Shown: positions 14,141 through 45,754, numbered from the stretch's first letter. The stretch: 64,000 nt of DNA from Azoarcus sp. (GCA_031258965.1 JAIRMC010000033.1:982-64981), one strand, 5' to 3'. Notes: generated by a model from the sequence alone, not told the origin. Translations and numbers: made by a program.

Positions 14141-14173
14141 GGCCATTGCGCGCGCTGCCGGGCGGCGATGCCG

Positions 14174-14827: not shown

Positions 14828-14935
14828 CTCTACTCCAAAAACAATAACGCCGCTACCACGGCAAAAGTGGAAACTTAAACCTTTCGTGTGGCTGCGGTCA
14901 AACTTGCACGGCTGGCCCGTGCCGCCGCATGAAAC

Positions 14936-16685: not shown

Positions 16686-16834
16686 GGCGCAATGGTTTCG
16701 TCCGTTTTTTCGTCCGCCCGGGCGCTTGCTTGCGGCCCGGAGGGCTTTTGTCGGATCGAAAAATACGCCTTATGCGGTTTCGACGCTACCGCGAGACGAC
16801 GCGGTAATGAACCCGCAGAATGCGCTTGCCTGCT

Positions 16835-17581
16835 TTATTTTCTCCAGAGGTTTGCGGGGATGCATACCACGGAGACAACGACCAGACCCAGCCAAGCATA
16901 GCGAACCCTGATTTTCGTGCCGACACGCCAGCAGGCGTTCCAATCGTGCGTCAACCGAAGCACCACCGACCCAACATCGAATTCACATAACTCGGCGGCG
17001 TGAAAGTCCTTGAACTGGCCTACTAACGGGAATAGCGCCTTGTACAGCGCCTCCTTCGCTGAAAAGAGCAGCGTCAATGATCGAACCTGGCATGGCATGT
17101 GTTTTTCCATGCCGATCAACTCTTCGTTGCAGCAAATGCATTGCTGTATCTCCAAGGCAACGTTAGGGGCGATCAACGGCTCCACGTCGATACCCAACGC
17201 ACAGTAGCGGGTTTTCCTTGCCGTCATTGCCACGGCCATCGTGGCGCAGTGGCTGATACTGCCCAGTACATCAGATGGCCAGACAGGCAGGCGATCCTTC
17301 ACGGGCAAGGGAAACTCCGCGCCGACGCCCATCTCCCGTAAAGACCGGGCGGCGCAGATCCGTCCCGCCATGAACTCGATTCGACGCCTGGCGCTCATAT
17401 CTTTGGGCACAAACTGCAGAAACGCGTTGGAAGACAACGGTTTTTCCATCGCCGCCCGCACTACTGGAATCGAGATTCTCGACAGCACTACGTGTTTAGT
17501 CCCGTCATTCGATGGTCTGGATCCATAGCAAAGCGTTGGGCATGTTATCCAGAGACTGAGCGGGGAAAGTGGCGGGATCAT
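16835..17581 (-). CDS. 4'-phosphopantetheinyl transferase (EntD-like); true start uncertain
   Basis: RRIEFMAGRICA, GSISHC, LGIDVE and FSAKEALYKA motifs; last gene of the NRPS/PKS array. Confidence 0.88.
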   Translation of the reverse strand: MIPPLSPLSLWITCPTLCYGSRPSNDGTKHVVLSRISIPVVRAAMEKPLSSNAFLQFVPKDMSARRRIEFMAGRICAARSLREMGVGAEFPLPVKDRLPVWPSDVLGSISHCATMAVAMTARKTRYCALGIDVEPLIAPNVALEIQQCICCNEELIGMEKHMPCQVRSLTLLFSAKEALYKALFPLVGQFKDFHAAELCEFDVGSVVLRLTHDWNACWRVGTKIRVRYAWLGLVVVSVVCIPANLWRK

Positions 17582-19960
17582 GGACGCGCTCCGCCGCCAC
17601 GACCTTCACTTGCAGGCATCCTTCCGCGGCATTGGCACGTGCATCAACCTGCCGCACGCCTTCCTGCCGACGAACGACGTCTTCGACCTCGCGCAAATCG
17701 ACCGTAGCGCCGACGAGGGTGGCGGGCCATACACGACGCTCGAAACGCCGTGGGTCGCATTGGCCTTCAGTGAGTTTCCACAGCCCATCTCGCCCCATCA
17801 AATCCGGGCACATCGCCACGGCATGCAAGACCGAGCGGAAATCCTCGAACATGGTCTGCGCCGCGCCATCGGCCAGCACTTCGTCCATGCAATACCAACT
17901 GAATACAAGCTCACCGTCGATTTCCATGACCTGGTGATCCAGCCAGACCTGCGGCGTCTGCGTGAACACATGCACGGGATCGCCCAGCAGACGGGTCATC
18001 GCCTGATCGATCGCCATGCCATCCAGTGTCATACCCAGCATGCTGGTGAACACGACTGGCATCAGTGGCTGGCGGGACTGCCCGCGGATATGACCAATCT
18101 CTCGCAGCAGTTCCACCCCGTTCACCTGACTGTTCGCCAGGTGTTGCCACAAGCGCTGCTGTGTCTGCTCAATGGACTGGCGCAAGGTGCGGGATGGATC
18201 GCCCAGTTCAAAGTCGACCAACAGCACCGAGGTGAAGTCACCGATCAACTGGCGTATTTGCGGATGAACCGGGCGTCGGTTGAAGAATGTCAGGTTCAGC
18301 GTAAAGGCCGGCCAGCGTGCCCAACGTTCCAGCACCCAGGCGAACAGCGTCATCAGGGCTGCCGAAGGCGTTACACCCCAGGACTGCCACTCGCGCTTGA
18401 GCCGAGTCCAGCGCTCGCGTTCCAGTACCGCTTGGTGGGTGGTGAAATGCGGCTGCACGCCTGTTTGCCGGCATCCGGACAGCGGCAATCTGGGCGCAGG
18501 CGGCAAGTCCGCCAGGCGTTCCTGCCAATAGCACCAGGCTTTCAGCCATGCCGGTTCCAGGCGGTGCGCCTGCTCATCGAGCACATAATCGCGGAACGTA
18601 ATCTGTAGCGGCGCCAAGGCCTCGCCCCGGTAGAGGGCGGCCATGTCGTCCATCATGACCTTGAAGCTCTGCACATCGAACAGCAACAGATCCAGATTCA
18701 TGTGCAGCCGGTAGCGACCGTCTCCCAGTTCGCTGGCAATCAACTCGAACAGCGGCCAGCGGTCTGTAGGCGGGACACGGTAAGACAATTCCTGCCGAGT
18801 CTTGTCCAATATTCGCTCGCGCTCATTGGCCGGCAGGGCTGACAGGTTGCACTGCCTGATCCGGTAATCCTCTACCTTGGCCAGAATGCGCTGTTGTCCG
18901 TCCTCGCCAATCACCATGCGCAGCATGTCGTGCCGCTTCACCAAGGCGTTCCAGGCTCGCTCGAAACGATTCAGGTCGAACTGCTCATGGCGTAGATCCC
19001 ACTCGAACAGTACATGGCAGGCCACGCCGCCATAGTCGATCAGAGGCGTTCGACCCACCCAATAAGCATGCTGAATCGGGGTTAGCGGGAATGGTTGGTA
19101 GCGTCCCTTTGCATCGTGCGACAACATCAGGGGTTGCGGCGATTGGTTCGTAATCTGGGCCGCCTGCGTCACAATAAGGCGGCTCAGGCCGTCGATGCTC
19201 AAGTCTTTATAGGCTTTGCCCGCGTCGATACGAACACCAAGGCGGCGCTGGATCGTGCTGCTCAGTTCCAGGAACAGCAGCGAATCCAGGCCCAACTGCA
19301 CCAGGTCACGCCTTGGCGACAAACGGGCCGGATCGTCCAAGCGCAATTGCGCGGCAATCTGTGCCGTCAGCCATTGCGCCACGGCATCGACATTGCCCAG
19401 CTTGTCAGGCGACAGATCAGTCACCGCCGGGCCATGCTGCGCTTCGGTTGGCGATGTCGCAGTAGCTGAAGACGTCACGGCAGAGTGAAGGGGTGGCAGT
19501 GGCTTCAAGCCCAGCAAGCGGCCGCGGGCGGCATCCAGGCGCTCGGGCAGTACCCGCATCGCCAGGCGATAGGGGGCCGCGCGCGAAACCGCCTGTTCCA
19601 GATGCCACAGTCCTTCGGCGTCGCTCAACACGCCCATGCCATCTTCAGCGAGGCGCTCCCGCAAGTCGGCATTCGCGGCCCGCCCAGTCTCACCCCAAGC
19701 GCCCCAGCCGATGGCAACCACGGTTACTGCCTTCCGGCCACCATCCGCCGTTGCAGCCTGATACGCTAGACCGTCCAAATAGGCGCTTGCCAGCGCATGG
19801 GCCGCTTGTCCCGCACTGCCCAGCGCCGCGGCCGCCGAGGAATAGAGCAACAAATAAGAATGCGCGTCAGCTTCGAGCAGTCGCTCATAAGTCCGCCAGG
19901 CCGCATGTGCCTTGACGGCGAGCACCGGCGCTAGCCGATTGCCGTCCAGCGCCGTGACGA
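17505..19960 (-). pseudogene. HMWP1-like PKS/NRPS fragment 3: C-terminal half of KR, ACP and cyclization (Cy) domain, then truncated
   Basis: LAPVLAVK...YSSAAAALGSAGQAAH (KR), LGLDSLLF (ACP Ser), TPIQHAYWVGR and DLLLFDVQSF (Cy DxxxxD). Stops about 75 aa after the Cy domain without MT, PCP or TE. Confidence 0.85.
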
Positions 19961-22002
19961 ACCGCGACCCAATGTTCCCCTTGGGCCGCCGCTTGCAGTC
20001 CCGTGACCAGATCCCGCCAATCCGAAGCAACCCCCAGATCCACCACGGCGATGGTACGTTTCGCATCCTGTGCGGCAAACTCGACCGCGGCGGTACGTGC
20101 CAGGCCCCAGACGGCGTGTTGAACGGCATTGACGGTATCTTCCGGCGCCACGGCCCAAGCGGCTCGCGTGACAACAACGATATCGCCGCCATCAGCATCC
20201 GCGATTACCCCCAGCGACGATGTGGCCACGGCATCCAATGCCATGACGCTTGGATCAATGACAAGCAATGTCCTGCCTGCATCCATATCCAGTGCGACGC
20301 CAGCAGCCAACAGCGCCGTTTCAAGCGCCGAGCCGACAGGATCGCTCAAACGGAATCCGCCACTGACCGCCTTGCCCTGGATTGCGCCAAGCGCCATGCG
20401 CTCCCATGACCAGTCATAATGCGTTTCGGGAACCGCCGGCAATACTAGCGTATCGTCATCACCAACGATCTCCATGCCGCTGAACCCATGCCATGTTCCA
20501 TCCGAGGAGCAGGCGCTCAATTCGACCCATGCCGGTTCCAGCGGCTTGGCATGCCATTGCAGTCGCACCAAGTTCAGCCAGTCCGGTGCGCGGGCGGGCA
20601 CATCCGGCAACGGCACAGTACGACCATTGCCATGGCGGTTCGCCATTTCCGCGCAGGCCTCGCCGACGCGGGCCTGCCATTCGGCCTCCTGTCCCGCGCA
20701 ATCCGACCAGTCCGCGAGATAGCTGCCATCATTTGCCAGCGCCTGTCCCAGCAAGCCGCTACCCAGCCCCGGCCGTGGGCTGACAAGCCTCCCTGACTTG
20801 CCTGGCGCCGTAGCCAACACGATATGCTCGCTCATGTCCGAAGTAGCCGTACCGTCATCCGGCAGCCATTCAATCCGCACAAACCCGGCCGCCAGACATT
20901 GCTCGCGCCAACGCGATGCCGTCAGAAACAGTTCGCCGCCGCGCGCATCTTCGTCGCGCAAGGGCAATACCAGCGGCCCGAACACAAAATCGAACAAGCG
21001 CATGGGTTGCGTGATCTCGCGCATCAGCAACTTGCCGCTCGGCTTGAGCAAAGGCAGCAGGTTGGCAAGCGTCTCGCCGACATGCTGTGTGGCGTGGATG
21101 ACGTTGGCCGCCACGATCAGATCGTAGTCACCCGCCGCGAAGCCTTGGGTCTCGGCGCTTTTCTGCAAGTCGAACTCGCGGTATTCGATGAAATCGAAAG
21201 CGGCAAACTTTTGTTCGGCCCGCCGTGTAAAAATCGGGGAAACATCGGTAAACACATAGCGCACCCCTGGCTGACCGGACAGCGTCGGCAGCAGCCACGA
21301 AGTCGTTCCGCCTGTGCCGCCACCGACTTCCAACACCCGATACGCCGGCAGATCCCCGCCTGATGTGCTCCTGCTGCGCAAAAGATCGGTCACGACACCC
21401 GCGGCAATTTGATTGAAATAGCGCCCAAAGCTGAAATCCTGGTACAGCACCTCCACGCCACTGGAAGCGCCTTCCGGAAAAATGACAGCAACCGGCTCGA
21501 CCTCGCCGTTCATCATCGCATACAGGTTGGCGCCAGCGCGTTGCACCGTCTCCGCGATCACGTCCAGGCCTTCGCAATATCCCCTCAGTTCATCGAGCAA
21601 GTCGTCATGCGCATCACGAGGAGCGGCAGTGTGGGTAGAGTAGCGCCCATCCTGCACCTGAAGGTAGCCATCTTCGACGCAGGCGTTAAGCAGACGCACC
21701 AGCAACTGCCGATGACGCGGCAACAACCGACCGCCTCGCAGGATGTCCAACGCCGTTACGCCATGGTCAATACCATTGCCCACGCAACGCCGCACCAGCT
21801 GATCAACGTATATGGCATGCAATTTGATGACACAGACGTATAGAGCCTTCAAACGAGGAAGATCCAGCTCGCGCGCCTGCCGAGCCAGCACATTGCGCGC
21901 TGTCGGCAGGTTCATTGCCATGCACACCGGCTCGTCCACCGCCGTAACGGGCGCTTCGCGCCAGTAGCGTTGCAAATCGAACGGATAAAGCGGGGCATGC
22001 AT
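19885..22002 (-). pseudogene. HMWP1-like fragment 2: post-AT linker, C-methyltransferase and KR structural half
   Basis: PLYPFDLQRYW linker, LEVGGGTGGT SAM-binding motif, YDLIVAANVIHAT, VWGLART; out of frame with both neighbouring fragments. Confidence 0.85.
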
Positions 22003-24605
22003 TTACGGCCCGAACCAGACAGCAGCGAGGGCCATGGCAGATCGGCCCCAGCGGCATAAAGCCGCATCAATGCCTGCTGGATCTGACGACTTGCGGACTG
22101 GTTGCGCTTGGCGCAGGCGATCCAGTGAGCCGCGCCTGGCAGTTCCCTTTGCCCGATGCCGGTCAAGGGCATATCCGGCCCCATCTCCAGAAACAGTCCC
22201 GCGCCGCTTTCCACGGCTTTGCGTAAACACTGGATGAAGCGTACCGGACTGCGCATGTGGCGTTGCCAGAAATCCGGCGCGTTTAGTTGTTCGGCATCCA
22301 CCGCTTCACCGGTCAGCCCGGAAATGAATGTTATCGAACTATCCCGTGCGAGCAGAGTGGCCGTTGCTTGCTGGAACTCGTCCAATATGGGATCCAGCAT
22401 TCGTGAATGCGCAGCTCCCGTCACGGTCAGCGGATTGCTGCGTATGCCTGTTTCCTCCAGCGCTACCGCCATCTTCGCCACACATTCGCGTTCGCCGGAA
22501 AAGACCAAGTGCCGTTCGCCGTTGTATGCGGCCAGATCCAACCCCAGCCGCAGGGCAATGGGCAAAGCCTCCGCCTCGCCGGAAAAGACTGATAGCATGG
22601 CGCCGCCACTGCAACGATCCATCAGCGCGCCACGCAGCCGCACCAGCGGCATGATGTACTCATGAGAGTAATACCCGGCCGCCACGGCTGCCGCAAACTC
22701 ACCCACCGAATGGCCTAATACCATGTCTGGCGCCAGACCCAGCGCCCGCCAATGCGCCGCCATCGCCAACTCAAAGGCAACAATGGCGGGCTGGGCGTAT
22801 TCCATGCGATGCAACAGCGTGGGTTCCGGCTCCATCAGCGCCTTGCGCAGCCCCTCGGAGAAATCCCTGTCTGTCGCGGCGAACACCGCCAAGCAACGCT
22901 CCAGGCAGTCCGCGAACGCCGGAGAATGGACACACCATGTCAACGCCATGCCCGGCCATTGCGCCCCTTGACCGGTGAACAACCAGACCCGCTTACCCGT
23001 TGCGCCATGCCCTGATTGGATCAGGATATCGTCTTCCCCTTGGGCAAAGGCCTCCAGGGCATCCGCTGTCTCATCGCACACCGGTACCGCCAAGCGGCAA
23101 GGCAGATCAAGCAAGCGGCCATGCAGCGCCGTATAGGCGACGTCGGCGGCTGGCAACTTTCGCAATGCTTGCACATAGGCGCCTGCCAGACGTTGCAACG
23201 CGCCTTTGCTGTTGGCACTGAGCAGCAGCACATCCTCAACCGGGCCGTTTTTCTCTTCGCCGGGACCTGGATGACACTGCAATTCGCGCGGCAGCGAAGC
23301 CACCACCATGTGACAATTGGTGCCGCCGATACCGAAAGAAGATACACCCGCCGTTCGCGCCGCCGTATCCCATGGCCGTGCGCTGGCCGGTACATAAAAC
23401 GGCCCGTCATTCAAATGTAATTCAGGATTGGCTTGGCTGAAATTCACACAAGGCGGAATAACACCATGCTCCACCGCCAGCACGGCTTTGAGGAACCCGG
23501 CAATGCCCGCGGCGGTATCCAGGTGCCCCATGTTGCCCTTGACCGAACCCAGCGCGCAGGCCGGGCCTTGCCCAAGCGTATGGAAAACCCGATGTAACGC
23601 CTGAAGCTCGATCGAATCGCCCAATGGCGTGGCCGTGCCATGCGCCTCGATCATGCCGATCCGCTGACTCCGCACACCGGCCAAGGACAATGCCCCGGCA
23701 ATCGCTTCGCACTGGCCCGAAACCGACGGCGCTGTGTAACCCACTTTATGGCCGCCATCGTTGTTGATGGCGCTGCCCAGCACTACCGCGGCCACAGGAT
23801 CGCCATCGCGCAAGGCATCCGACAGGCGTCGTAGTACCACTGCCGCCACCCCGTTGCCGGAATACGTTCCTTGCGCTTGGGCATCGAATGGACGGCAATG
23901 CCCATCCGGCGAGAAAATCATACCTTGTTGGTATAGGTACCCGCTCACCTGCGGGAAAGATACCGCCACGCCGCCCGCAATAGCCATATTGCATTCACCG
24001 GCGCGCAGGCTCTCGCAAGCCATGTGGGTGGCCACCAGTGAACTCGAACACGCCGTCTGCACCGTGACGGCGGGGCCATGCACATCCAGCTTGTAGGCCA
24101 CGCGCGTCGCCACATAGTCCTTGTCGTTGCCCATCAGTGATTGCAGGCTTCGGACATGTGCAACCTCGGCCAAGTTGATCGCTTCCCGGCCTGGATAGGT
24201 ACTGATTCGGGCCGCGCTGAATACGCCCGTCTTGTGCGGCACAGCCCTGGGTGCATACCCGGCGTGCTCCAGCGCGTGCCATGCGATTTGCAGGAACAGG
24301 CGCTGCTGCGGGTCGATCAATTCGGCTTCCTGCCGCGAATAGCCGAATAGATCCGCATCGAAGGCATCAGCATCTTTCAACACTGTTCCTCGGGGCACAT
24401 AGGCCGGATCGTCAAGGATAGCCAACGGGACGCCGACATCCAGCAATTCCTGGCGGGAAAACCGCCGATTGCACTCGCGCCCGGCTACCAGATTAGCCCA
24501 GTAAGCATTGCTGTCCTCGGCCTCGGGAAAACGGCAGGCATAACCGATCACGGCGATCGGCTCTACATCCGGGTAATACTGGTTCAACAGTTCTTCGATA
24601 TTCAC
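21912..24605 (-). pseudogene. HMWP1 (Irp1)-like fragment 1: ketosynthase and acyltransferase
   Basis: VQTACSSSLVA, EAHGTAT and GHLDTAAG (KS triad), GHSVGE and AAHS (AT). GTG start overlaps the NRPS stop (GTGA); the frame breaks near 22003. Confidence 0.88.
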
Positions 24606-26960
24606 AACGCACTCCCGCGACGGCGCTGCGCCCGTGCCTTGCGCCGCGCGAGCAGTTCCTGACGCGCTTCATTGATGTTGGCGATGCTGCTAGCAGCAGC
24701 CGGCATACCATGTAAATGTGCGGCCAAGGCCAGTGGCGTTGCATGGGTAAACAGATCGGTCACTTGCAGATTGTCATGGCCGGTCCGCTTCAGGTGCACA
24801 TGCAACTGAACCAGTTTCAGGGATGTGGCGCCGACGTCGAAGAAGGACTGGCGCGGCTGGATCGGCAACCCGACTACTTGTTTGAAATACCGGCACAGCG
24901 CCTGCACCAACACATCATCGGTGCGCAACGTGGCAGACTCCGACGCGGCGTCAGGCAAAAACGACTTGGGCAATGCAGGCAGCGAGCGATGCGCGCCTTC
25001 CAGGCGCGGCACCAGCGCATCCAACGGCAAACCCCATGCCGCCTCATCTTCCGCCAGCCGCTGTAGCAGGGCCACGTAACGGTCGAACATGATCCGCGCC
25101 TGCGCCGGCTCGAACAGTTCCTGCACATAATCCCAGTTGAAATGCAGCTCGCCCTCCGACTCATATACCTGATGGTCGAGCCAGATCTGCGGCGTCTGCG
25201 AAATCCCCCAACGCGGTTTCATCCAGGAGGCGTGAGCCAGAAAGCGATCCCGCTCAAAGCCCAGCGCGCTGGTAAAAACTATCGGCATGGTTGCCGATGC
25301 CTGTCCGGCACGTTGGGCAAGCTGGCGCATTACCTGGATGGCCGACACATCTCGATGTAGCAGATCCTGTCGCAGACGCTGCTGAAGCCGACGGGCGCTG
25401 TCGCGCCAGTTACCGACCGGTTGCCAAGCCAGCAGCAACAAGGTCGTGAAGTCGCCCAGTACCTGCTCGATCTGTGGATGCAACGGCTGGCGATCGAACA
25501 GCGTCAGGTTCAGGCACAAATCATCGCGCGCGGCCCAGGCCGACAGGGTGGTCGCGTAAGCGGCCAACAGCAGGGCCGAGGGCGTCAGATCTTCTTCGCG
25601 CGCCCGCGTTTTGAGTGCGGCCCATTGCGCGGAGGAGAAATGGGCCGAGAACCGCGCGAAATGCGGCGCCCCGACATCGGCTGGATCGCAGCGTAACGGC
25701 AGGCGCGGCGCTGGCGGCAGACTATCCAGACGGCGCGCCCAGTACGCCAGCGACACGGCGTTGGTCTCGCGCTGGCGTACATGCTCCAGATAATCCCGGA
25801 AACTGATATCCAGTTTGGGCAACACCGACTCCAGATCCATATAGAGCCGCTCCAGTTCCGCCAGCAGGATCCGCATGCTGAGTCCGTCCAGCATCAGATT
25901 GTCCAGGCATACGAACAAGCGCGCCTGCCGGCCATCCGCCCGCGCCGCCTGGATATCGAATACGGGCCAGCGGGACGGGTTCAACACCTGCCTGGCCAGG
26001 CGCTCGCGCAAGGCAGCCGTTTCCCCGCCCTCCAGGTCGGCCACCCGATGACAATGCAGCGTGAATCCCGGCACTTCTTCCAATACCTGCTGCATGCCAT
26101 CCCGCACTACCGCCCGCAGCGTATCGTGGCGTTCGATCAGCCGGTTCATCGCATGCTCGAAGCGCGCCACGTCCAGGTCGGCAACCTCGAAATCGACGAA
26201 AAAATGCGAACCGACCCCGCCCAGCGCAAACCCCGGCTGACGACCGACCAGATAAGCCTGTTGGACATCGGTCAACGCGAACGGCGCATGGCGGGTGGCC
26301 GGATCGTGGCGCAGGCTGTCCTCGCCATGTGCGCCGCCACGATGTACGGTCGCGGCAAAAGCAGTCAGCGTCGGGAAATCGAACAGATCGCCCAACCCAG
26401 CCACATAACCTCGCCGACCCAGTTCGCCCATCAGGCGCGTCGCCAACAGGCTGTCTCCGCCCAACTGGAAAAAATGACTATCCCGGTAGATGTTGGGCGC
26501 TTTCAGCAAATCGCGCCATAAGGCCGCCACGACCTGTTCCGTGTTTCCTTGCGGCACTTCGCGTTCAGCTTGGGTTTCCTGCCGCTGGCTGGCGCAGCGT
26601 TGCGCCAGGGCGCGATGATCCACCTTTCCGTTGGCGGTCAGCGGCAAGGCCTCAAGAAAGAACAGTCGCTGCGGCGTCATATAGCCGGGGAGTAGTTTGC
26701 GCAGAGCGGCGGACAGCTTGCCGTTATCAGGCCTGAGCGCCTCGCACGGCGCGCGCAAGATCAACCATTGCACATTGCCCGCCAATCCGCAGGCTTCATT
26801 GCGCATGCCATGTGAAGCCAACATTGATTGCCACCACGGCATTTCGTGCAAGCGATCCGGTATGCCGCCATGACCATCAGCCGCCAGCAGCTCAGCGGAA
26901 ACCATCGCCAGGCTGGATACCCGGAACAACTCATGAACGCAGACCAACGCCGAAGGGGCG
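24602..26960 (-). pseudogene. HMWP2-like NRPS fragment 2: end of inserted MT-like domain, A-subdomain, PCP, Cy2, PCP
   Basis: LPLTANGKVD, LGGDSLLA (PCP), DNLMLDGLS (Cy), VGATSLKL (PCP). Continues fragment 1 in a different frame. Confidence 0.87.
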
Positions 26961-29900
26961 GAAGGCCAGCGCCGCCCGCACACCGGCATCGCCCAGCCGG
27001 TGCAAGGCATTGTTGGCCCAGACCACATCGGCCTGGTGTAATTCCTCATACGGAACATCAATGTGCCAACGCCGCGCCTCGGCACACGCATACCGTTGCA
27101 GATTCGCCGTGGCGCGCAACGCCATCTCTGGCGATTCATCCCACGCGATATATTCCACCCGCACGCCATCCAGACGCCGCAAAAGCTGTTGCGCGGCCAG
27201 GCCGCTGCGAGCGCCCACTTCATGCAGGCGCACCGACCGCCCCAGCGCCTGTTCCAGCGCCCGCACCATGTCGGCCAGCGCCTCGATGGCCGCTGCCGTA
27301 CCGTGCGTGTGCAGCAGCAAATACTCCGGCGTCCAGAATGGATGGTTCAGCAGAGTCTGCGCCGACCGCTCGCCGCGAAGAATCTGCGCGAGCGGCGCGT
27401 GGTGCGTCAGCAGCGCATCCGCGGTCTCCCGCAACGGATGCCCGCTAGGCGGCTGCCAGGGTCGAAGCGGAACGTCGGACACAGGCGCATAGCGTCCGTC
27501 TGGCATATGCTCTAAGAATCCTTCGGCGGATAGATGCTCCAACCATCGACTTATCGACCCGGCCCGGCGATGCTGTGCGCCATACTGGCGAACTGCCTCA
27601 TCCGCCGTAATGTCCGTGGTCAAGTCCACGCCCTGTCGACCCAGATGATCGTGCAGGAAGCCGGCCAGCAACCGCGCCATGTCGATTTCATTATCCGGTT
27701 CGGACTGACTCTCGTCCGGAATCCCATGTGGCGCCAGCGCCGCATAATCATTAGGCAGCGCAGGATCGGCAGGGAGGGCACTGTACAGCGCCGTCCCTTG
27801 CGGCGCCACGAAGGCGGCCAGCGATTTCTCCCGCTCGCCCACCGCGATTGCCACAGCGCTCTTGACGCCAGACACCCGCAACAAAGCCGCCTCGATCTCG
27901 CCCAGCTCGATGCGATAGCCGCCAATCTTGACCTGTGTGTCGCGCCGTCCCAGGAATTCCAGCCGGCCATCCGGCCAGTAGCAGCCCGTGTCCCCGGAGC
28001 GATACCAGCGTTCGCCATCTACCGTCACGAACTGCCGCGCCGTGCGCTCAGGGTCGTTGAAATAGCCCAGCGCCACGCCTTCGCCGCCAATCCACAGTTC
28101 CCCCGGCACCCAGTCCGGGCAATCACGGCCCCGCGCGTCGACCACGCGATACTTTTGCCGTGCCAGCGGATAGCCGTAGGGGATCGAACGCCAGCCTGGC
28201 GGCACATCCTCCACATCATGGATATTGGACCAGATGGAAGCCTCCGTCGCGCCGCCCATCGCCACGAACCGGCCATCCGACCGAAAGCGCCGGTAGCGCG
28301 CTGGCAAATCCAGACCGATCCAGTCGCCTGACAGCATCACCGTCCGCAGCGTGACCGGCGCACGCAGCCCGAGTCCTTCGCTGTAAGTCAATAGCATGTC
28401 GAACAGCGCTGGCACTGTGTTCCACAATGTTACGCCATGCCGTTCCATGGCCTCGCACCACGCGGCGGGGTCGCGCCGCTGGCTTTCATCCACCAGCACC
28501 AATGCGCCGCCCGCCGACAACAAGCCAAAAATGTCGTACACCGACAGATCGAAATGCAACGCCGACAACGCCAGCACCCTGTCACCCGCCGTAACCGCGT
28601 AGCGGCGGTTCAGCTCCGCGCACGTATTCAGCGCGCTCCGGTGGGAAATGACCACGCCTTTCGGCGTACCGGTGGATCCGGATGTGTAAATGATGTATGC
28701 CGACTTACGGGCATCGATCACGCGAGGGGCAGGCAGGGCTTCATATCCGATAGCGTCCCGCCAGTCCAGGAACGTCACGCCGTCCACCATGTCATCCGTG
28801 GAGCCGCCGGCATCGTCGCGGCCCGCCAATACCAGCGCTATGCCCGCACCCCGGTAAATCGTTCGCTGGCGTTCTTGTGGTTGATCCGGCGAAACCGGCA
28901 CATATACCGCGCCCGCGTACAATATCCCCAGCACCGCGACGATCTGCCCGACGCCCTTGGACAGAGTGATCGCCACCCGATCTTCCGGCCGCACGCCCCG
29001 CGCGACCAGCGCCCCGGCGCAGCGCCGCGCCTGTTCCGCCAGTTCGCCATAGGTCAAATGGCGATTGCCGTGAATCAATGCCACCGCATCCGGACACTCG
29101 CGCGCCTGGCGCCAGAACTTTTCATGCAGCAACCCCTCGGGGGCTGGCGCGTCGTCATAGGCGTTGATCCGCGCCCTCACGGCATACTGTGCCCGTGGCA
29201 TCAGATCCGGCGCGTCTTCACGCCAGGCTTGCGGCCGATCCATCAGATGCCTTACCTGACGCACATAGGCATGGAACATGGCATCCAGCAGCCCCGGCGG
29301 GAACAGCGCATCGTTACAGTCCCACTGCAAGAACACCGAAGCGCCATGCTCGTAGGCCAGATGATCTATCCAGACCTGCGGCGTCTGCGAAATCCCCCAG
29401 CCCGGCACACCCAATGTGCGCTCCACGTCCCGGCCAAACAACGGGCGGCCCAGATTGCTGGTGAATACCACCGGTGCGCCATGTGGATAAGCGCCCGGCG
29501 TCTTGCGCAACTCGCGCAGCCATTCCACGCCCGACCAGTGCCTGTGCTCGTAGGCTTCCGCGAAAGTTTGCTGATTGGCCTGCGCCAGCGCGCCGAAACG
29601 CGCGCCTTCGCCCGCAATGTCCAGCAGCAGGATGTTGGTGAAGTCGGCAATCATGTTTTTCACCGCGGCATGCAGCGGCTGACGGTCGAACAGGGTCAGG
29701 TTCAACAGCAACCGGGGCTGGCCGCACCAGCGCGACAGCACCGCGCCAAAGCAAGTGGCCAGCGCCATTGTCGGCGTCACGCCGTACTCTCCCGCGCATG
29801 TCCTGAAGCGCGTCCAGTCCTCGGCCTGGATTTCCACGCGCCTGCGTGAGATGCATACCTGCTTGATTTGCTCCGGCTCGCATGCCAACGGCAGATGCGG

Positions 29901-30842
29901 CGTATCGGGCAAACTGTCCCGGCGCGCCATCCAGAACTGTCGCGCCCGCTGCCGGGACGTCTCGTTTTCCTGTGCGGCCTGGGCCAGATAGCTCCTGAAA
30001 TCGTAACCCGCGTCCACCGCCGGCAGGCGTTCGCCGCGCGCCAATGCAGCCAATTCATCAAACATCAGGCTGAAGCTCGCGGCATCCAGTACCAGCAGGT
30101 CGATGTTTACGTGCAGCCTGTTGCGGCCATTGGGCAACAGCGTGAGTTGGAAATCAAAGTTCTCGCCTCGCTCAACGGCCAGCACACGGTGGCCGTGACG
30201 TTCGCGCATTGCCCGCATGTGCGCCTCGCAATCGTCCGGCAAGGCCGCGCGCATATCGTGAAGCGTCAGTCCGCGCCAGCGGACGCCGGGCCGACATTGC
30301 TGACGACCATCATCTAGGAACGTCACCGTCAGCATCGGATGGCGTTCGATCAAAGCGCCAATAGCCTGCTCCAGCGTATCGGCGTCCAGCCCCGCGCCAT
30401 CGAATTCCTGATACAAATGGCAACCCACGCCGCCCAACGTCTGATGCGGCGCGCGGCCCGCCAGATAAGCATGCTGTACGGGCGTCAGCGCGAACGGCTC
30501 GCCGTTCGCCATAGTCGGCCAGGGAGAAGAAAGGGCCTGTTTCGCAACCAGGTTCGGCGCATCTCGCGCAACCGCCGGATACTCGCGCAATAGACGGCTC
30601 CAGCCCCTCAAAGTGGGTTGCCGGTACAAATCCTGTAGCTTCACCCTGTGGCCACGCTTGCGCAAACGATGCATCCAAGCCATGAACCGCATCGAATCCA
30701 GGCCCAGCGCCAGGAAACTGGCATCGGCATCCAACTGTTGCGCGGGTATCCCGAAATCGGCGGCGACCTCTTCGCGCAATGTCTCATCCACCCATCCCAT
30801 CTCTTCTTCCTTGATCTGCGCCAACTTCGTCATCTGATCCAC
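26931..30842 (-). pseudogene. HMWP2 (Irp2)-like NRPS fragment 1: aryl carrier protein, Cy1, Cys-type adenylation domain, inserted MT-like domain
   Basis: LGLDSMR (ArCP), DLLVLDAASF (Cy), YTSGSTGTPKG, HFDLSVYD, GGATEASIWS, YRSGD and QVKIGGYRIE (A domain). The frame is lost near 26960. The start may be the ATG at 30833. Confidence 0.88.
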
Positions 30843-30845: not shown

Positions 30846-32318
30846 TTAGCGCATTTCCACCGCTAGCTGCCGGTTCAGCGCCAGCACGTCTTCTTCGGAA
30901 AACCGTCCTGCGTAGAACCGCATCTTGGCGTAGGCCTGGAACCATTCCACGCAGGTTCGCAGCAATTCCAGCCGCGCCTGGTAGGCTTGCCGCTCGGCGT
31001 GCAGGGCGTCCGTGTTGGTGCGCTCACCGCCCGCCACGCTCCAGCGCATCGCCTCCACCAACCCGACGCTGTCCGCCACGTTCTGGCGCAGCGTCCGCAC
31101 GCGCTCCTCACTGCTGGCGCAAACGCGGAAATATTTCTCCAGCATCGTCCGCGCGGTCTCGACCGCGTGATCCAGCTCGTGGCGCGCCTGTTCCAGCCGC
31201 TCGCGCGACTGGCGCACCGTGTAATAGCTACCGCCGCCGCTAAACAGCGGCAGCGACGCCGACAAGCCCACCGTGTTGGCTTTGTAGTCGCGCCCCTTGT
31301 TGTTGATAGTGTCCGACGCGACCCGCTCGTGCGCCGCATAGACTGAGACCTTGGCCAGGAACTGCCCCTTCTCGCGCTCGACCGCCAGATCGTTGTACTT
31401 GACGGCCAGGCGCGTCGCCTGCAATTCCGGGTTCTGCCGCAAGGCGTCGCTGAGCAGGCCGTCCAGATCCGCTTCCCCCAACGGAATCCGCGCTTCTTCC
31501 AGATCGATGCCCAGCAACTGCGCCGCTTCCACCGGCTCGCCCACGATCGCGGAGAGTTCCCGCAAGCGGTCGGCCAGTTCGTTCTCCTGCGCCAGCAGTC
31601 CGGAGCGGGTCGCGCCCGCCTGGGTGCGCGTCTCCAGAACGTCGATCCGGGTGCCTTCGCCTTGCGCCATCATCCGCTCGTTGCCGCGCAGCATGTCTTC
31701 ATAGACGCGCAACTGCTGCCGCGCCAACGCCAACGTCTCGCGCGCCAGGACGGCGTTCAGGTAGATGTCGATCATGCCCAACGCCACTTGCTGGGTTTCC
31801 AGCCGGTACTGCACCTCGGCATGTTCGGATTGTGTCCGGCCCATCCGGTAGGCGCTGATGGCGGAATAATCGAACAGCGGCTGTTCGATGCTCACGTCGG
31901 TGCGCCGCCCGGAGAAGGCGTCCTTGACGGTGACGCGCTCTCCCGGCGACCCCGACTGCGTCACTTCCTCCGCCAGCCGCGTGCGGCTGCGCCGGTAATT
32001 GACCGAGGCCCGGGGCAGCAGCCCGGCGCGGGCAATGTCCTTCGCTTCCCGCCCCGCCGCCCGCGCCGCCCGCGCCGCGTGCAGTTCCGGCGCGTTCAGC
32101 AGCATCCGCCGATAAGCCCGCGCCAAATCCAGCGTCCGCGGATGGGATTGCGCCTGCGCCCGCGGCGGCGTCTCCAAGAGGTCGGCCCGCACGGGCGCAA
32201 TCCCGCCGAAGAACAGCGGCAACGCCGCCACCGCAACCGGAAGCCAGCGCCCCGCCCTGCCGGCCCCGCGCAAGCGCCGCCGCATGGCAGCGCATTCTCG
32301 TCTACCGCGCGCCGTCAT
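30846..32318 (-). CDS. Type I secretion outer membrane factor (TolC/HasF/AprF family)
   Basis: Signal-like N-terminus, EQPLFD, NPEL, LSASLPLFSGG and YQARL motifs. ATG abuts the MFP stop (TGAATG) and the gene ends 3 nt before the NRPS start. Confidence 0.92.
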   Translation of the reverse strand: MTARGRRECAAMRRRLRGAGRAGRWLPVAVAALPLFFGGIAPVRADLLETPPRAQAQSHPRTLDLARAYRRMLLNAPELHAARAARAAGREAKDIARAGLLPRASVNYRRSRTRLAEEVTQSGSPGERVTVKDAFSGRRTDVSIEQPLFDYSAISAYRMGRTQSEHAEVQYRLETQQVALGMIDIYLNAVLARETLALARQQLRVYEDMLRGNERMMAQGEGTRIDVLETRTQAGATRSGLLAQENELADRLRELSAIVGEPVEAAQLLGIDLEEARIPLGEADLDGLLSDALRQNPELQATRLAVKYNDLAVEREKGQFLAKVSVYAAHERVASDTINNKGRDYKANTVGLSASLPLFSGGGSYYTVRQSRERLEQARHELDHAVETARTMLEKYFRVCASSEERVRTLRQNVADSVGLVEAMRWSVAGGERTNTDALHAERQAYQARLELLRTCVEWFQAYAKMRFYAGRFSEEDVLALNRQLAVEMR

Positions 32319-33671
32319 TCAGTCCTCCGTCAGCGCCAGCCGGGCGCGGTCGCGCAGCGGCTTGAACAGATAACTCATCAGCGTGCGCTCCCCCGTCTTG
32401 ACGAAGGCCGTCACCGGCATGCCCGGCTGTAACAACAGCCCCGGCAGCGCCTCGCGCCCCCGCAAGTCGTCCACATCGATTTCCACGTGGTAATAAGGCA
32501 TGCCCTGCGGGTCTTCCAGCCGGTCTGCCGAAACCGTCCTCACCGTGCCCGGCAGCCTGGGCGTGGACGCGCGATTGAAGGCCGCGAATTCCAGCTCCAC
32601 CGGCTGCCCGGCATGCACCTTGTCTACCGACTGCACGGCCAACTTGCCTTCCACCCGCAGCGGCTGATCCGACGGTACGATCTCCATCAGCGTCTGCCCG
32701 GCGCTGACCACGCCGCCCTGGGTAAACACCGCCAGCCCGGCCACCACGCCCGCCGACGGCGCCGCGATTTGAGTGTTCGCCACCTCGTATTGGGCGCTGT
32801 CCAGCCTCGAAAGCAAATCCGCCGTGCGCGTGCGCGTTTCCGCCAGCGCTGTGCGCAGCTCCTTCTGGTAATCCTCGCGCTGCCGGGTCAGGCGCAGCCG
32901 GTATTCCCGCACCTGTTCTTGCAGCAAGCCCAAACGGCCTTCGTCATCGGCAATGGAAGCGTCCAATTGCAAGAACTGCCGCTCCGATTCGAACAAGCGG
33001 TTGCGCGCCAACAGTTCGTCATCGGCCAGGGAACGCTGGCCCGCAAGCTGGCGCTCGAAAGTCACGCGCTGCTCGCGCCGCGATTGCAAGATGCGTTGCA
33101 GGCTGTCGCGCTGCTCGCGCGCGCCGCCCAAGGCGGCCTCCATCCCGCCCAGCGTGGCCTGCTGGGCGCTGCGGCGGCTGTCGAACAACTGCTGTTGCGA
33201 CTGGACGATCTCGACCGCCTGCGGGCTGCCCTCGCGCTCGGCCCGCAACAGCCGTTCATCGAAACGGATATGCGCCAGCCCATCGCGCTCGGCCGCCAGA
33301 CGGTTTTCCGCCGCCAAGCTGCTCAAGTACTGGAAGCGCAACGAATCGAGCTGGTTGGCCGCCACCGTCGGCTCCAACTCCACCAGCACCTGGCCTTCCC
33401 GCACCGCCTCGCCCTCGACCGCCAAGATGCGCCGCACCTTGCCGCCCGCGACCGGCTGCACCGCCTTCCGGTTGCCGCTCACCACCACCTTGGCGTCCAC
33501 CGGCACGCCCGCATCCAGCGGCGCCAGCGCCGCCCAGGCCGTGAAGCCCGCCACCCCCGCCAGCACGACCAGCCAGCCCAGGCGCACGTAATGCCCCTCG
33601 TCCACCGACAGCGGATCGCCCCGCGCGCCGCCGTCCAACGACTGCCTATCCAGGCTCAGTTCCGCACCCAT
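32319..33671 (-). CDS. Type I secretion membrane fusion protein (HlyD/HasE/PrtE family)
   Basis: WAALAPLDAGV, GNRKAVQPVAGG, IAAPSAGVV, LQPGMPV and ERTLMSYLFKP motifs. True start at MGAELS; the ORF-track N-terminal extension overlaps the ABC gene. Confidence 0.93.
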   Translation of the reverse strand: MGAELSLDRQSLDGGARGDPLSVDEGHYVRLGWLVVLAGVAGFTAWAALAPLDAGVPVDAKVVVSGNRKAVQPVAGGKVRRILAVEGEAVREGQVLVELEPTVAANQLDSLRFQYLSSLAAENRLAAERDGLAHIRFDERLLRAEREGSPQAVEIVQSQQQLFDSRRSAQQATLGGMEAALGGAREQRDSLQRILQSRREQRVTFERQLAGQRSLADDELLARNRLFESERQFLQLDASIADDEGRLGLLQEQVREYRLRLTRQREDYQKELRTALAETRTRTADLLSRLDSAQYEVANTQIAAPSAGVVAGLAVFTQGGVVSAGQTLMEIVPSDQPLRVEGKLAVQSVDKVHAGQPVELEFAAFNRASTPRLPGTVRTVSADRLEDPQGMPYYHVEIDVDDLRGREALPGLLLQPGMPVTAFVKTGERTLMSYLFKPLRDRARLALTED

Positions 33672-35443
33672 GTTCCCTCCCTGCGCTGCGCAAGATTCAT
33701 TGCCGGCAAGGGCATGATCCGGTTCGGCGGCGGCTGGGGCGCGGCCGCGCGCTGCATGCGTTGCAGCATCTCGGCCAGCGGGCCGAAATCGACCTGCGTC
33801 CCGGCATGGAGCGTCAGCAACTTGTCCGCTTGTTGCAGAATATTGGGCTTGTGCGTAATCACCACCAGCGTAATGCCCGCCTGCTTGACGCGGCCAATGG
33901 CTTGCGCCAGCGCCGCCTCGCCCGCCTCGTCCAGATTGGCGTTGGGTTCGTCCAGCACCACCAGGCACGGCTCGCCGAACAACGCCCGCGCCAGCCCCAC
34001 GCGCTGCCGCTGCCCGCCCGAGAGGCCCATGCCGTTCTCGCCCAGACGGCTCTGGTACCCCTCGGGCAATTGCAGGATCAACTCATGTACCCCCGCCATC
34101 CGCGCGGCGGCGATCACTTTCCGCTCGTCCATCTCGCCGAAGCGGGCGATGTTCTCGGCCACCGTGCCCGCGAACAATTGCACCTCCTGCGGCAGATAGC
34201 CGACCAGTGCGCCGAGCGCCCCAGGCCGCCATTGATCCAGCGGCGCGCCGTCGAGCCGCACCTTGCCGCGCAACGGCGGCCAAGCATTGACCAGGCAGCG
34301 CGCCAGCGTAGTCTTGCCCGCGCCCGAAGGGCCGATCACCGCCAGCGTCTCGCCCGCGTCCAGCCGGAAGTCGATGCCGTGCAACACCGGCTGGGTCTGG
34401 CTGGGCGGGGCGGCCAGCAACTGCTCCACCGCCAGCGCGCCGCTAGGCCGGGGGAAATCCATGCCCTGGGCCAACGGCGGAAAATCCGCCAGCAGCAGGC
34501 TCAGGCGGCGTTCCGCCTCCTTCACGTTCGTCCATTGGCGCAAGGCGCTGATCACCTGGTCGATGGGGGCCAGCGCCCGGCCCAGCAGAATGGAACCGGC
34601 GATCATCATGCCCGCCGTCATCTCGTGGCGCAGCGTCAGCCAAGCGCCCAGCCCCAGCGTGAGCGACTGCACCGCCAGGCGCAGCGCCTTGTTCCCGCCC
34701 TGGATTTTCGCCATGCGGGCGCTGGCCAGGTTCTGCTCGCGCACATAGGCCAAATGCTGCCCGGCCCAGCGTTGGCGCAGGCTGCCCAGCATGCCCATGG
34801 CCGCGATGGCCTCGGCATTGCGCAGGTTGGCGCTGGCATCGCGGCGCGAGGCGATGGCAAGCTCCCCCGCCTTTTGCAGATGCGGGCGGCTCACCCGCTC
34901 GTTGAACCAGCCCACGCCCATCAGCAGCAGCGTACCGCCCAGGGCGAACCAACCCAGCAGCGGATGAAAATAAAACATCACGAGCAGATAGACCGGAAAC
35001 CATGGCGCGTCGAACAGCGCGAACAGCGCGCTCCCCGTGGCGAACTGGCGCAATTGCTGCAAATCCTCCAACGGCTGGGCGGCGTTCAACTGGCCTGTCT
35101 TGAGGTTCGCGCTGAAAGCGGCGTCGAACACCCTCGGCGCCAGCCTGCGGTCGAACCCCGTGCTCAAGCGCAGCAACACCAGGCTGCGCACCCACTCCAG
35201 CCCGCCCAGGAAGACATACAACATCAGCAGGATGAGCGTGAGCATCAGCAGCGTCATTTCGTTGCCGGAAGCCAGCACGCGGTCGTAGACCTGCAACATG
35301 TAGAGCGCCGGGGCGAGCATCAGCAAGTTGACGACGCCCGAGAACACGCCGATGTGCGCGAAACCGCGCTTGTAGGCCAGCAGGGCGCGGGCCAGCTCGC
35401 CGCGCGCGTCCCCCGCCGGACGGGGTTCATCCATCGTCGCCAC
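33656..35443 (-). CDS. Type I secretion ABC transporter (PrtD/HasD/AprD family)
   Basis: NLLMLAPALYMLQVYDRVL family signature, LFDAPWFP, Walker A GPSGAGKT, LSGGQRQR and LDEPNANLD; no C39 peptidase domain. Confidence 0.95.
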   Translation of the reverse strand: MATMDEPRPAGDARGELARALLAYKRGFAHIGVFSGVVNLLMLAPALYMLQVYDRVLASGNEMTLLMLTLILLMLYVFLGGLEWVRSLVLLRLSTGFDRRLAPRVFDAAFSANLKTGQLNAAQPLEDLQQLRQFATGSALFALFDAPWFPVYLLVMFYFHPLLGWFALGGTLLLMGVGWFNERVSRPHLQKAGELAIASRRDASANLRNAEAIAAMGMLGSLRQRWAGQHLAYVREQNLASARMAKIQGGNKALRLAVQSLTLGLGAWLTLRHEMTAGMMIAGSILLGRALAPIDQVISALRQWTNVKEAERRLSLLLADFPPLAQGMDFPRPSGALAVEQLLAAPPSQTQPVLHGIDFRLDAGETLAVIGPSGAGKTTLARCLVNAWPPLRGKVRLDGAPLDQWRPGALGALVGYLPQEVQLFAGTVAENIARFGEMDERKVIAAARMAGVHELILQLPEGYQSRLGENGMGLSGGQRQRVGLARALFGEPCLVVLDEPNANLDEAGEAALAQAIGRVKQAGITLVVITHKPNILQQADKLLTLHAGTQVDFGPLAEMLQRMQRAAAPQPPPNRIMPLPAMNLAQRREGTWVRN

Positions 35444-35699: not shown

Positions 35700-36527
35700 T
35701 CACGCTGCCAGCAGATCGTTGCAACCGCAATCGCAGCAAGGGCAGCAAGCGATGACACCGTCTGCGACATAATCACCGGCCTCGTTGTAGTAAGTGATCG
35801 ACACGCCAGTACCAACCAACGCGGCATTGATGCTCGCCCAAGGGTCAGTAATATCGGAACCACGCGATTCCAGATACTTGTCCAGCACGAACTCGAAGGC
35901 TTGGACGGTGGTGTTGTCGAACGCCAACCCGTAAAGCACGGCGGAGTTCAGCGTGGCTGCGGCATAGATGCCCGCATTCGCCAGGATGCTGTTACCGTTA
36001 TCGTCTACCAGCAACGAAGCAGCGATGGCGCTATTGCCGTCGGTCACGCTGAACTCGCTGACCGCCACCGCATCCACCGCGATGTTGAAGCCAGTGACTA
36101 CCAGCAGGGACTCATAAGCGTCGAACGTCGCCAGGGTTGCGCACTTCGGGGACGGGTTATAGTCGCCGACCGGCGTGTAACCGAGATACAGGGTATCCAG
36201 ATCGCCGGTGGTCACGAACGTATACAACTCAGCTACATTGTCGTAGGTCGTATCCCAAGAAAATCCTTCGGCAGAATTCACCAGGAACTTCCCACCGCCA
36301 TTTCCAGGCGTGACGTGATCCACCCCTTGGCCCGCATACCAGTTGAAATCATAGATTTCATAGGTGGGCGGCGTTGCAGTGGGATCGTAGATGCCGCTAC
36401 CGGAGTGATAGCCGCAATCCTCAACGCCAGCCGCCCAAATGGAGCCGATGTAGTCCGAGTTATAAGCGTTGATCTCGGTTTGGTCGTAAATACCCCGCCA
36501 CGCGGTGGTATCAGTTTGCAAAGACAT
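35700..36527 (-). CDS. Divergent HasA (hemophore)-like secreted protein, 275 aa, with a Cys-rich tail; probable T1SS substrate
   Basis: No signal peptide; acidic and rich in Gly/Thr/Tyr. GDLDTLYLG and VLYGLAF resemble HasA GQLDSLSFG and VVYGLMSG. C-terminal DLLAA resembles the HasA ELLAA export motif. Strong AGGAG RBS; lies between receptor and T1SS genes as in has operons. Confidence 0.7.
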   Translation of the reverse strand: MSLQTDTTAWRGIYDQTEINAYNSDYIGSIWAAGVEDCGYHSGSGIYDPTATPPTYEIYDFNWYAGQGVDHVTPGNGGGKFLVNSAEGFSWDTTYDNVAELYTFVTTGDLDTLYLGYTPVGDYNPSPKCATLATFDAYESLLVVTGFNIAVDAVAVSEFSVTDGNSAIAASLLVDDNGNSILANAGIYAAATLNSAVLYGLAFDNTTVQAFEFVLDKYLESRGSDITDPWASINAALVGTGVSITYYNEAGDYVADGVIACCPCCDCGCNDLLAA

Positions 36528-39486: not shown

Positions 39487-39741
39487 CAGTTTGACCTCAT
39501 CCATGAGTACGAACGTAAATGCCAATGAGAGGCAATTACCTGATTGAACAAAACCCCTACCCCGATGGCTGCGATAGATCAATGTCAGCCGATGGCAAGC
39601 TTGACGGAAATTTGTCAACCTCGCTAACGGTTTCCGGGAAAAACTTGACTATTCGGGAATTTTTATTTCAGTATTGGCAATATCACGAGTCATCGCCGCC
39701 GAAGGCGCGGCGGCGGGCTTGGAACGGTGCAATGAGCCGCT

Positions 39742-44767: not shown

Positions 44768-45754
44768 ATGGCAGGGACGACAGAGACGGCATCCGACCAG
44801 TTGGTGCTCGAACCATGCAAACTGCAAGAAACCGGGCTGGAAGGCGTGCCGGAAAAATGGCAACTTGCCATGCACATGCACCAGCCCTGCGAAGGGCTGT
44901 ATATCAGTTGTATCAATGGCCGCCCTGGCAGCGACTGGATTTTCCGGGCCGAAGGGCCGCATGCCTTCAGCATAAACATCCTGCTCGAAGGGCGCATGCA
45001 GACCGCCTTCGATGACGGCGACGTGCTCGATGCCCAGGCGGGTTCCGCTACCCTGATGGCCACGTGTCAAGACACCACCGGCTGGGATGCGCTCAATGGC
45101 AAATCCGGGAGCGTCTTTCGCATGGTCAGTATCCATATGCCGCAAACCGTCATGAGCGGCCTTACCGGGCTACAGATGGATGACTTGCGCAGCCGGACGC
45201 GCGCCAGCCTCGGCAACCAGCAGCATATCGACGCCTTCCTCGGCATCATGCCCGCCTCCAGCAGCCTGCAACGCGTAGCTTGCGACCTCATCGACTTCGG
45301 CTGCGCCTACTTCGGCCCCCGCCTCTCGCACAATTTGTACCTGCACGCCAAGGCGTTGGAAGCCATTGCCTGCTTCCTGAGGGAGAACCTGACACAGCGG
45401 GAGGCCGACTTGCCCGTGCCCACCGACTGCCCCCGTTTACTCGAAGCGCACGCCCTGCTAGAGCAGACCTATAGCGAGGACTGGAATGTGCTGTCCCTGG
45501 CGCGGATCGTCGGACTCAACGAGAAACGTCTGCAATCGGGCTTCCGGGCCTTGTTCGGCTGCTCGGTCTACGCATGCCTGACGCGCATCCGCATCAACGC
45601 CGCCGTCGCCTTGTTGCAGCGCGGCGCCAGCGTGACCGAAACTGCCGCCAGTTGCGGCTTCGCCAGCCTCAGCCACTTCAGCCGGATATTCCGCAACCAC
45701 ACAGGCGTCTCGCCCAAGCAATGCGCCCTGGGCATCAAGCCGCCAACGCCCTGA
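44768..45754 (+). CDS. AraC-family activator (YbtA/PchR-like)
   Basis: LHAKALE, C-terminal double HTH (LARIVGLNEKRLQSGF...CGFASLSHFSRIF); divergent from the siderophore transport genes. Confidence 0.92.
   Translation: MAGTTETASDQLVLEPCKLQETGLEGVPEKWQLAMHMHQPCEGLYISCINGRPGSDWIFRAEGPHAFSINILLEGRMQTAFDDGDVLDAQAGSATLMATCQDTTGWDALNGKSGSVFRMVSIHMPQTVMSGLTGLQMDDLRSRTRASLGNQQHIDAFLGIMPASSSLQRVACDLIDFGCAYFGPRLSHNLYLHAKALEAIACFLRENLTQREADLPVPTDCPRLLEAHALLEQTYSEDWNVLSLARIVGLNEKRLQSGFRALFGCSVYACLTRIRINAAVALLQRGASVTETAASCGFASLSHFSRIFRNHTGVSPKQCALGIKPPTP

Follow-up and report, generated by a model that had tools for sequence, protein, structure and literature searches.

The 64,000-nucleotide (nt) stretch of the Azoarcus sp. 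genome GCA_031258965.1 analyzed here (JAIRMC010000033.1:982-64981; hereafter the window, with positions counted from its first letter) carries a single gene island on its minus strand, from ~45.8 down to 16.8 kb. This island is probably an acquired siderophore locus of the yersiniabactin (salicylate-thiazoline) type, the biosynthetic half of which was recently inactivated by four independent insertions or deletions (indels) and the transport open reading frames (ORFs) of which are intact. Its genes are, in order, an AraC-family regulator (plus strand, divergent), a major facilitator superfamily (MFS) protein, two fused ATP-binding cassette (ABC) genes, a receptor, a 275-amino-acid (aa) protein, a type I secretion system (T1SS), a nonribosomal peptide synthetase (NRPS), a polyketide synthase (PKS)/NRPS hybrid, and a phosphopantetheinyl transferase (PPTase). 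Each biosynthetic gene of the island is damaged or lost, and the siderophore of this island would no longer be made by the organism if the assembly is correct. The host genome is a draft of 145 contigs (2.71 Mb, 93.7% complete) that resembles a metagenome bin.

Lesions in the synthetase genes

The lesions were judged against five relatives with an intact cluster, the nearest being Pseudothauera nasutitermitis at ~80% amino acid identity. Apart from its own product, the first NRPS piece has as its best protein-database match a 2070-aa NRPS record of P. nasutitermitis (82% identity); the Pseudothauera HMWP2-like gene was called here from an upstream start, which makes it 2110 aa. The next database matches are proteins of ~2050-2100 aa from many proteobacteria, several of them named yersiniabactin NRPS. 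Pseudothauera, Pollutimonas bauzanensis, and an uncultured Comamonas have a common order of receptor, small protein, T1SS, HMWP2-like (~2100 aa), HMWP1-like (3232-3263 aa), YbtU-like reductase, editing thioesterase (TE-II), YbtE::YbtS, and PPTase genes, where YbtE::YbtS is a fusion of salicyl-AMP ligase and salicylate synthase. The intact HMWP1-like protein has the domain map KS-AT-MT-KR-ACP-Cy-MT-PCP-TE.

When the intact Pseudothauera proteins are searched against the window with tblastn, they match five collinear pieces of 76-81% identity in shifting frames. The neighboring synthetase ORFs overlap out of frame by 293, 91, and 314 nt. The biosynthetic features are as follows:

24602..30842, minus strand: HMWP2-like NRPS pseudogene, ArCP-Cy-A(MT insert)-PCP-Cy-PCP, with ORF pieces at 26931-30842 and 24602-27223 (Pfam; 81%/80% identity to the Pseudothauera halves, in two frames)
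26959..26962, minus strand: lesion 1, a 2-nt deficit in the MT-like insert of the A domain (nucleotide and three-frame alignments to five relatives)
17505..24605, minus strand: HMWP1-like PKS/NRPS pseudogene, KS-AT / MT-(KR N-half lost) / KR C-half-ACP-Cy, with ORF pieces at 21912-24605, 19885-22002, and 17505-20198 (Pfam; tblastn)
21998..22002, minus strand: lesion 2, a 1-nt deficit in the post-AT linker (alignments to relatives)
19957..19958, minus strand: lesion 3, the junction of a 368-nt deletion (alignments; partial Pfam KR match)
17492..17546, minus strand: lesion 4, a 55-nt filler at the junction of a ~7.2-kb deletion (homology end points and gene order in relatives)
16835..17581, minus strand: EntD/Sfp-type PPTase, ORF open, native 5' end lost (Pfam 4PPT_N, ACPS)

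The HMWP2-type synthetase, which in its working form is one ArCP-Cy-A-PCP-Cy-PCP polypeptide, still has all of these domains in recognizable form and is ~80% identical to that of the relative, but its frame is broken at ~26960. Residues 34-1324 of the 2110-aa query match 30833-26961 in frame -3, and residues 1325-2110 match 26962-24605 in frame -1. At this junction, which lies outside a homopolymer, the window has 2 nt fewer than all five relatives, which are in frame, and a stop at 26931 follows 9 codons beyond the lesion.

The HMWP1-like protein is represented by KS-AT, MT, half a KR, ACP, and Cy in three frames, covering residues 1-875, 876-1554, and 1675-2481 of the 3247-aa query; the N-terminal half of the KR and the terminal MT-PCP-TE are absent. 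The window is 1 nt short at lesion 2, between residues 875 and 876 and again outside a homopolymer, and the piece downstream happens to start with an ATG at 22002. Lesion 3 removed residues 1555-1674, including the GGxGxLG Rossmann NADPH-binding motif of the KR, and changed the frame, with ~5 nt of microhomology at the inferred end points; the Pfam KR match is therefore confined to profile positions 96-179 of 180.

At lesion 4, HMWP1 homology ends at 17547 (residue 2481 of 3247), the stop codon lies at 17505, and PPTase homology begins at 17491 after 55 nt of unrelated filler. Since YbtU, TE-II, and YbtE::YbtS (~4.9 kb) stand between HMWP1 and the PPTase gene in three relatives, this is a deletion of ~7.2 kb rather than a plain truncation. 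It took HMWP1 residues 2482-3247 (MT2-PCP-TE), the YbtU-like reductase, TE-II, YbtE::YbtS, and the first ~18 PPTase codons. What is left of the PPTase is 69% identical to the Pseudothauera enzyme over residues 29-244, and it can start in frame only at an internal GTG or at an upstream ATG (17581) that lies in the HMWP1 remnant. Orthologues of YbtS and YbtE were found nowhere in the genome, the best matches being paralogues of at most 36% identity; tblastn with the Comamonas proteins gave no match to YbtU in the genome and only a 27% match to the thioesterase, on another contig.

The four lesions described in the initial annotation are thus all in the assembly, within a few bases of where it had placed them, and the comparison that it advised, with relatives carrying an intact cluster, places every break. 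Its C-terminal truncation near 17510 was correct in site and understated in extent, further genes having gone with the deletion. Programmed frameshifting and a natural split of the synthetase were both ruled out, as the five relatives are continuous at both small-indel sites and the out-of-frame tails lack homology.

Several losses leave the assembly line unable to work. The HMWP2-like NRPS has its cysteine-activating A domain split; the PKS module breaks off behind its AT; the KR lacks the NADPH site; and the enzymes for making and activating salicylate have been lost, as have the final MT-PCP-TE, the reductase, and the editing thioesterase. The proposed history comprises four events, namely two small frameshifts, the 368-nt deletion, and the 7.2-kb deletion. 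With the first disabling hit, selection would have ceased to act on the remainder of the line, where further neutral indels could then pile up.

Up to the break points, the two megasynthases have the same architectures as those of the yersiniabactin (ybt) locus, and ybtPQX-like genes are found in the same order with a divergent AraC regulator. Unlike the ybt locus, the window has its biosynthetic genes broken or deleted. The layout differs as well: fyuA follows the biosynthetic genes in the canonical ybt locus, whereas a ~1000-aa receptor, a secreted protein, and a PrtD-type T1SS precede HMWP2 in the window, Pseudothauera, Pollutimonas, and Comamonas. The clusters of the relatives further depart from ybt in their fused ligase/salicylate synthase and in having the PPTase as part of the cluster.

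Background error rate and a second assembly line

To set the lesions against a background, 400 kb of a 99%-complete genome of the same genus was screened against the whole assembly. No frameshift was confirmed in the 196 orthologues recovered (67,058 aligned residues, ~200 kb, mean identity 73%), and no more than 3 of them were doubtful, as partial genes. Eight candidates with multiple high-scoring segment pairs, six with frame changes, had come up in a first pass and were rejected; they were due to antisense shadow ORFs and overlong reference N-termini, and all sit at gene boundaries after a codon-position composition filter and junction inspection. One stretch, at ~13800-14950 of contig C136, aligns with a YhdH/AcuI-like oxidoreductase of the congener over the C-terminal ~86 residues alone, at 56% identity and with no clear coding frame, and may be a gene remnant.

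Measured against this background, at least four lesions in 13.3 kb have a Poisson probability of 5e-8 to 6e-5 and are more than generic assembly noise. In the window itself, the core genes that were checked, encoding GlnD, Map, PFK, Adk, Hsp33, an alanine symporter, GatA, PBP2, and NapA, have full-length Pfam matches, in agreement with the earlier view that they are unbroken. No repeat in the island is longer than 57 nt (65-82% identity), so that the assembler had no long repeats to collapse there. The exact junction of lesion 3 had no match in metagenome contigs. Searches for other copies of the island gave nothing above 74% identity in a protein-guided scan and nothing above 82% in the protein database.

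A second NRPS/PKS line lies at 608-18901 of an 18.9-kb contig, C87, and was used as an internal control for assembly quality; its 17 kb of NRPS/PKS has open frames of 1925, 2000, 1071, and >560 codons and no break. It consists of a TauD-like hydroxylase, FAAL-T-C-A-T (1925 aa), KS-AT-KR-T-C (2000 aa), a second TauD-like protein, C-A-T (1071 aa), and a C-A... protein that runs off the contig end. Lines of this layout bring to mind acylated peptide siderophores that carry hydroxylated residues, which would be a candidate type of product.

Transport genes and origin of the island

The nine non-biosynthetic genes (AraC, MFS, two ABC, receptor, 275-aa protein, T1SS ABC, HlyD, and outer-membrane protein) each have a single frame, with 0.92-1.0 of their length aligned, which bears out the earlier observation that the receptor, the "HasA-like" protein, and the T1SS, ABC, MFS, and AraC genes have no frame breaks. 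They are, along the window:

30846..32318, minus strand: TolC-family outer-membrane protein of the T1SS, full length (Pfam OEP; TIGR01844; coverage 0.94-0.98)
32319..33750, minus strand: HlyD-family T1SS adaptor, full length, start approximate (TIGR01843; 77-82% identity, coverage 0.99-1.0)
33656..35443, minus strand: PrtD/HasD-type T1SS ABC permease/ATPase, full length (TIGR01842; 82-84% identity, coverage 0.99-1.0)
35700..36527, minus strand: 275-aa protein without a family match, ORF intact (42-56% identity, same position in three relatives)
36607..39618, minus strand: 1003-aa TonB-dependent receptor, ORF intact (Pfam Plug and beta-barrel; 54-59% identity, coverage 0.92-0.98)
39742..43340, minus strand: two fused permease/ATPase ABC genes, intact, YbtQ-like at 39742-41544 and YbtP-like at 41541-43340 (Pfam; 88% identity to Pseudothauera)
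43303..44577, minus strand: YbtX-like MFS protein, intact (Pfam MFS_1; 88% identity to Pseudothauera)
44768..45754, plus strand: AraC-family regulator in YbtA-like position, divergent from the MFS gene, intact (Pfam HTH_18)

All three T1SS components exceed their NCBIfam cut-offs: 244 against 225 for the TolC-like protein (TIGR01844), 377.5 against 208.7 for the HlyD adaptor (TIGR01843), and 722.8 against 510 for the ABC protein (TIGR01842). As in the relatives, the HlyD and ABC genes overlap at the end of the latter. The succession of receptor, small secreted protein, PrtD-type ABC, HlyD, and TolC is that of the Has system (hasR-hasA-hasDEF), from which the window differs in that its receptor is under the heme-receptor cut-offs and its 275-aa protein is without a HasA match. 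The latter, which the initial annotation had labelled "HasA-like", has no Pfam or NCBIfam match at all, and its position is conserved in relatives.

A YbtP/YbtQ ABC pair, a YbtX MFS protein, and a YbtA-type AraC regulator are found beside the synthetase genes. The genes of the YbtP-, YbtQ-, and YbtX-like proteins follow the order of those in a Klebsiella oxytoca ybt locus, with 58%, 51%, and 44% identity to the corresponding positions there, and the MFS protein has a RhtX/FptX subfamily match under the cut-off. The AraC regulator is 73% identical to that of Pseudothauera over 325/328 residues; its match to K. oxytoca ybt is weak (38%, helix-turn-helix only). Two copies of a 28-nt direct repeat (89% identity) lie at 39622-39649 (CGCTAACGGTTTCCGGGAAAAACTTGAC), just upstream of the receptor gene, and at 44723-44750 (CGCTAACGGTTTACGGAAAAAATTTGAC), in the MFS/AraC divergent promoter region. 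This repeat may act as an operator common to both sites, bound either by the YbtA-like regulator or by Fur.

The receptor and the 275-aa protein have only 54% and 42% identity to their Pseudothauera counterparts, compared with 80-88% for flanking genes, and are closer to those of Pollutimonas and Comamonas. The G+C content of this pair is 55-56%, versus 66-68% in its neighbors. Together these features suggest a separate history of the pair or diversifying selection on it.

The relatives have rearrangements of their own. Pseudothauera carries an insertion of ~9 kb of unrelated cargo in the interval from the AraC gene to the receptor (contig C4, ~399-407 kb), with translations that, read by eye, include a 530-aa protein with HPxxxGNGR (a Fic-like motif), a GNAT-like acetyltransferase, an AAA ATPase, a subtilase-like protein, and a transposase-like fragment. 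The ybtPQX-araC block of Pseudothauera is also inverted with respect to the window, and with this inversion and the cargo the two islands are set apart by rearrangement in addition to the lesions. In the Azorhizophilus paspali locus, a single 703-aa ORF (7776-9887) joins part of a receptor (46% identity to residues 437-912 of the window receptor) to a TolC-like C-terminus (65% identity to residues 294-490). This fusion looks like a deletion of the secreted protein, ABC, and adaptor genes, and would represent decay of the opposite half of such an island.

The PKS and the YbtP-like gene are absent from 21 genomes of the same genus, in which the best matches are FabF-like and MsbA-like paralogues; this species has therefore acquired the island horizontally. 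An empty-site test with the three closest congeners did not define the insertion site, as their DNA downstream of hsp33 maps to the ends of other contigs of the present genome (C98, C16, C28, and C1). As this congener DNA does not correspond to the left flank of the window (CYTH, adk, pfk), the island stands at a synteny break (45754-45906). In the remnants the G+C content is 61-63%, compared with 69-72% for the corresponding Pseudothauera genes.

Judged by NapA, the closest genomes (82-90% identity) are metagenome bins, the names of which we take to be those of termite-gut surveys, and the species name of P. nasutitermitis presumably points to a termite source. At most, this suggests a habitat shared with the carrier of the intact cluster. 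A termite-specific clade of Rhodocyclaceae is reported to codiversify with termites (PMC10281810); membership of the present genome in that clade is not implied.

Age of the decay and retention of the transport genes

None of the five remnant pieces, 13,284 nt in total, has an in-frame stop. Because a stop would arise from 3.3% of all single-base changes that these pieces could undergo, no more than ~0.7% neutral divergence (95% bound) can have accrued after the inactivation. Pairwise dN/dS (the ratio of nonsynonymous to synonymous substitution rates) against Pseudothauera is 0.16-0.20 for the synthetase pieces, which were therefore under purifying selection for most of their history, and 0.14-0.47 for the other genes. 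Per-gene dN/dS, a check proposed in the initial annotation, does not set the biosynthetic genes apart from the transport genes. A relative-rate test with outgroups gave window:Pseudothauera branch counts of 165:71 for biosynthesis and 188:63 for transport and regulation (Fisher p = 0.22), the window branch being the faster in both. Four hits placed at random over the island would all strike biosynthetic genes with P = 0.045 (lengths as they are now) to 0.11 (ancestral lengths), and the remaining 15.6 kb would go unhit at the biosynthetic per-base rate with P = 0.009-0.05.

With these numbers, we lean slightly toward the transport genes having been retained through continued use rather than through short elapsed time. 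Several points weigh against a half-inactivated island with a functional transport half. The inactivation is recent, so the intact neighbors may simply await their first hit; amino acid change is equally fast in the transport genes and the synthetase; and the placement of the lesions leans only weakly to constraint on transport genes, in a pattern picked post hoc. The acquired island may be decaying as a whole. The receptor scores 206.7 for the TonB-hemin subfamily, under the cut-off of 316.9, and if the second line on C87 makes a siderophore, the organism would still be a producer. Lastly, the collections searched contain no second assembly of this island, and any single lesion could be an assembly or population-consensus artefact.

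The initial annotation had proposed relaxed selection on production, rather than random error, with uptake and secretion selectively kept for capturing a siderophore made by others. Its clustering of lesions holds up over the background, and the capture machinery is present as intact ORFs; selective keeping of that machinery is not borne out by the rate tests or the recency of the decay, and the placement probabilities (0.009-0.11) leave its maintenance by selection in doubt.

Loss of synthesis with retention of the cognate receptor is a documented pattern, seen in marine vibrios and pyoverdine-negative pseudomonads. It is possible, if doubtful, that the window belongs to a true cheater of this kind, in which selection keeps the receptor, the Has-like module, and YbtPQX for the thiazoline siderophore of neighbors and costly production has been lost. 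All nine full-length genes, the low probability of 15.6 kb escaping at the biosynthetic rate, the 28-nt motif retained upstream of both transport operons, and the closest intact cluster being that of a species with a termite-derived name, together with nearest genomes by NapA whose names we take to be those of termite-gut bins, would fit this account. Biosynthesis, the loss of which a cheater must show, has indeed been lost through the four lesions and the missing genes, if the assembly is correct. Like natural nonproducers, the window keeps receptor and importer ORFs beside the remains of the pathway; unlike them, it is one draft genome known from its genes alone, whereas they are known from many isolates, growth assays, and population frequencies. 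The decay is, however, too young for intact ORFs to be informative, the gene classes differ in neither rate nor dN/dS, uptake is not a conserved trait of a lineage whose congeners lack the island, the pattern was chosen after the fact, and a thiazoline siderophore is only a putative ligand of the receptor. The concept of the siderophore cheater is discussed in PMC5812596.

We consider it rather unlikely that the island was useless after its transfer and that all of its genes are neutral, the synthetase having been struck first as the largest target. Within the genus the island is confined to this species, the random-placement probabilities are not very small, the transport genes are accelerated at least as much as the synthetase, and the 5' end of the PPTase gene is damaged too. 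On the other side, nine intact ORFs over 15.6 kb beside four lesions are somewhat improbable under such decay, and the near-island-wide acceleration may instead be a lineage effect or a drift in base composition after transfer, as the G+C difference from Pseudothauera would allow. Least credible is that the lesions are short-read metagenome assembly errors or a strain consensus and that real cells have an intact cluster: the draft is fragmented and incomplete, its nearest relatives are metagenome bins, and NRPS/PKS genes are trouble spots for assemblers, but neither ~200 kb of core genes nor the 17 kb of the other NRPS/PKS line has a confirmed frameshift, the two large deletions are clean, without flanking repeats, and not of a sequencing-error type, the small indels avoid homopolymers, and the lost genes are on no other contig.

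On the favored reading of a recently half-inactivated island, the organism may continue to take up this compound, or a different source of iron, from its neighbors, and intact versions of the cluster would exist in bacteria of similar habitat. We tentatively entertain a gut symbiont of small genome size turning from producer to pirate, production having been lost within ~0.7% neutral divergence with the capture module and YbtPQX importer kept. That the island is of the P. nasutitermitis kind, making a natural producer/cheater pair in the insect gut, is an uncertain proposal as well. No new mechanism is added by such a case, nonproducers that keep their receptors being already well documented. 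If the lesions are real, they would represent a clean, datable instance of a host-associated bacterium losing a public good, with the lost genes known from an intact cluster in a related bacterium. The island would then be a possible test case for siderophore piracy in insect guts, and would allow one to ask what role the module of receptor, secreted protein, and T1SS plays in a cell that does not itself produce a siderophore.

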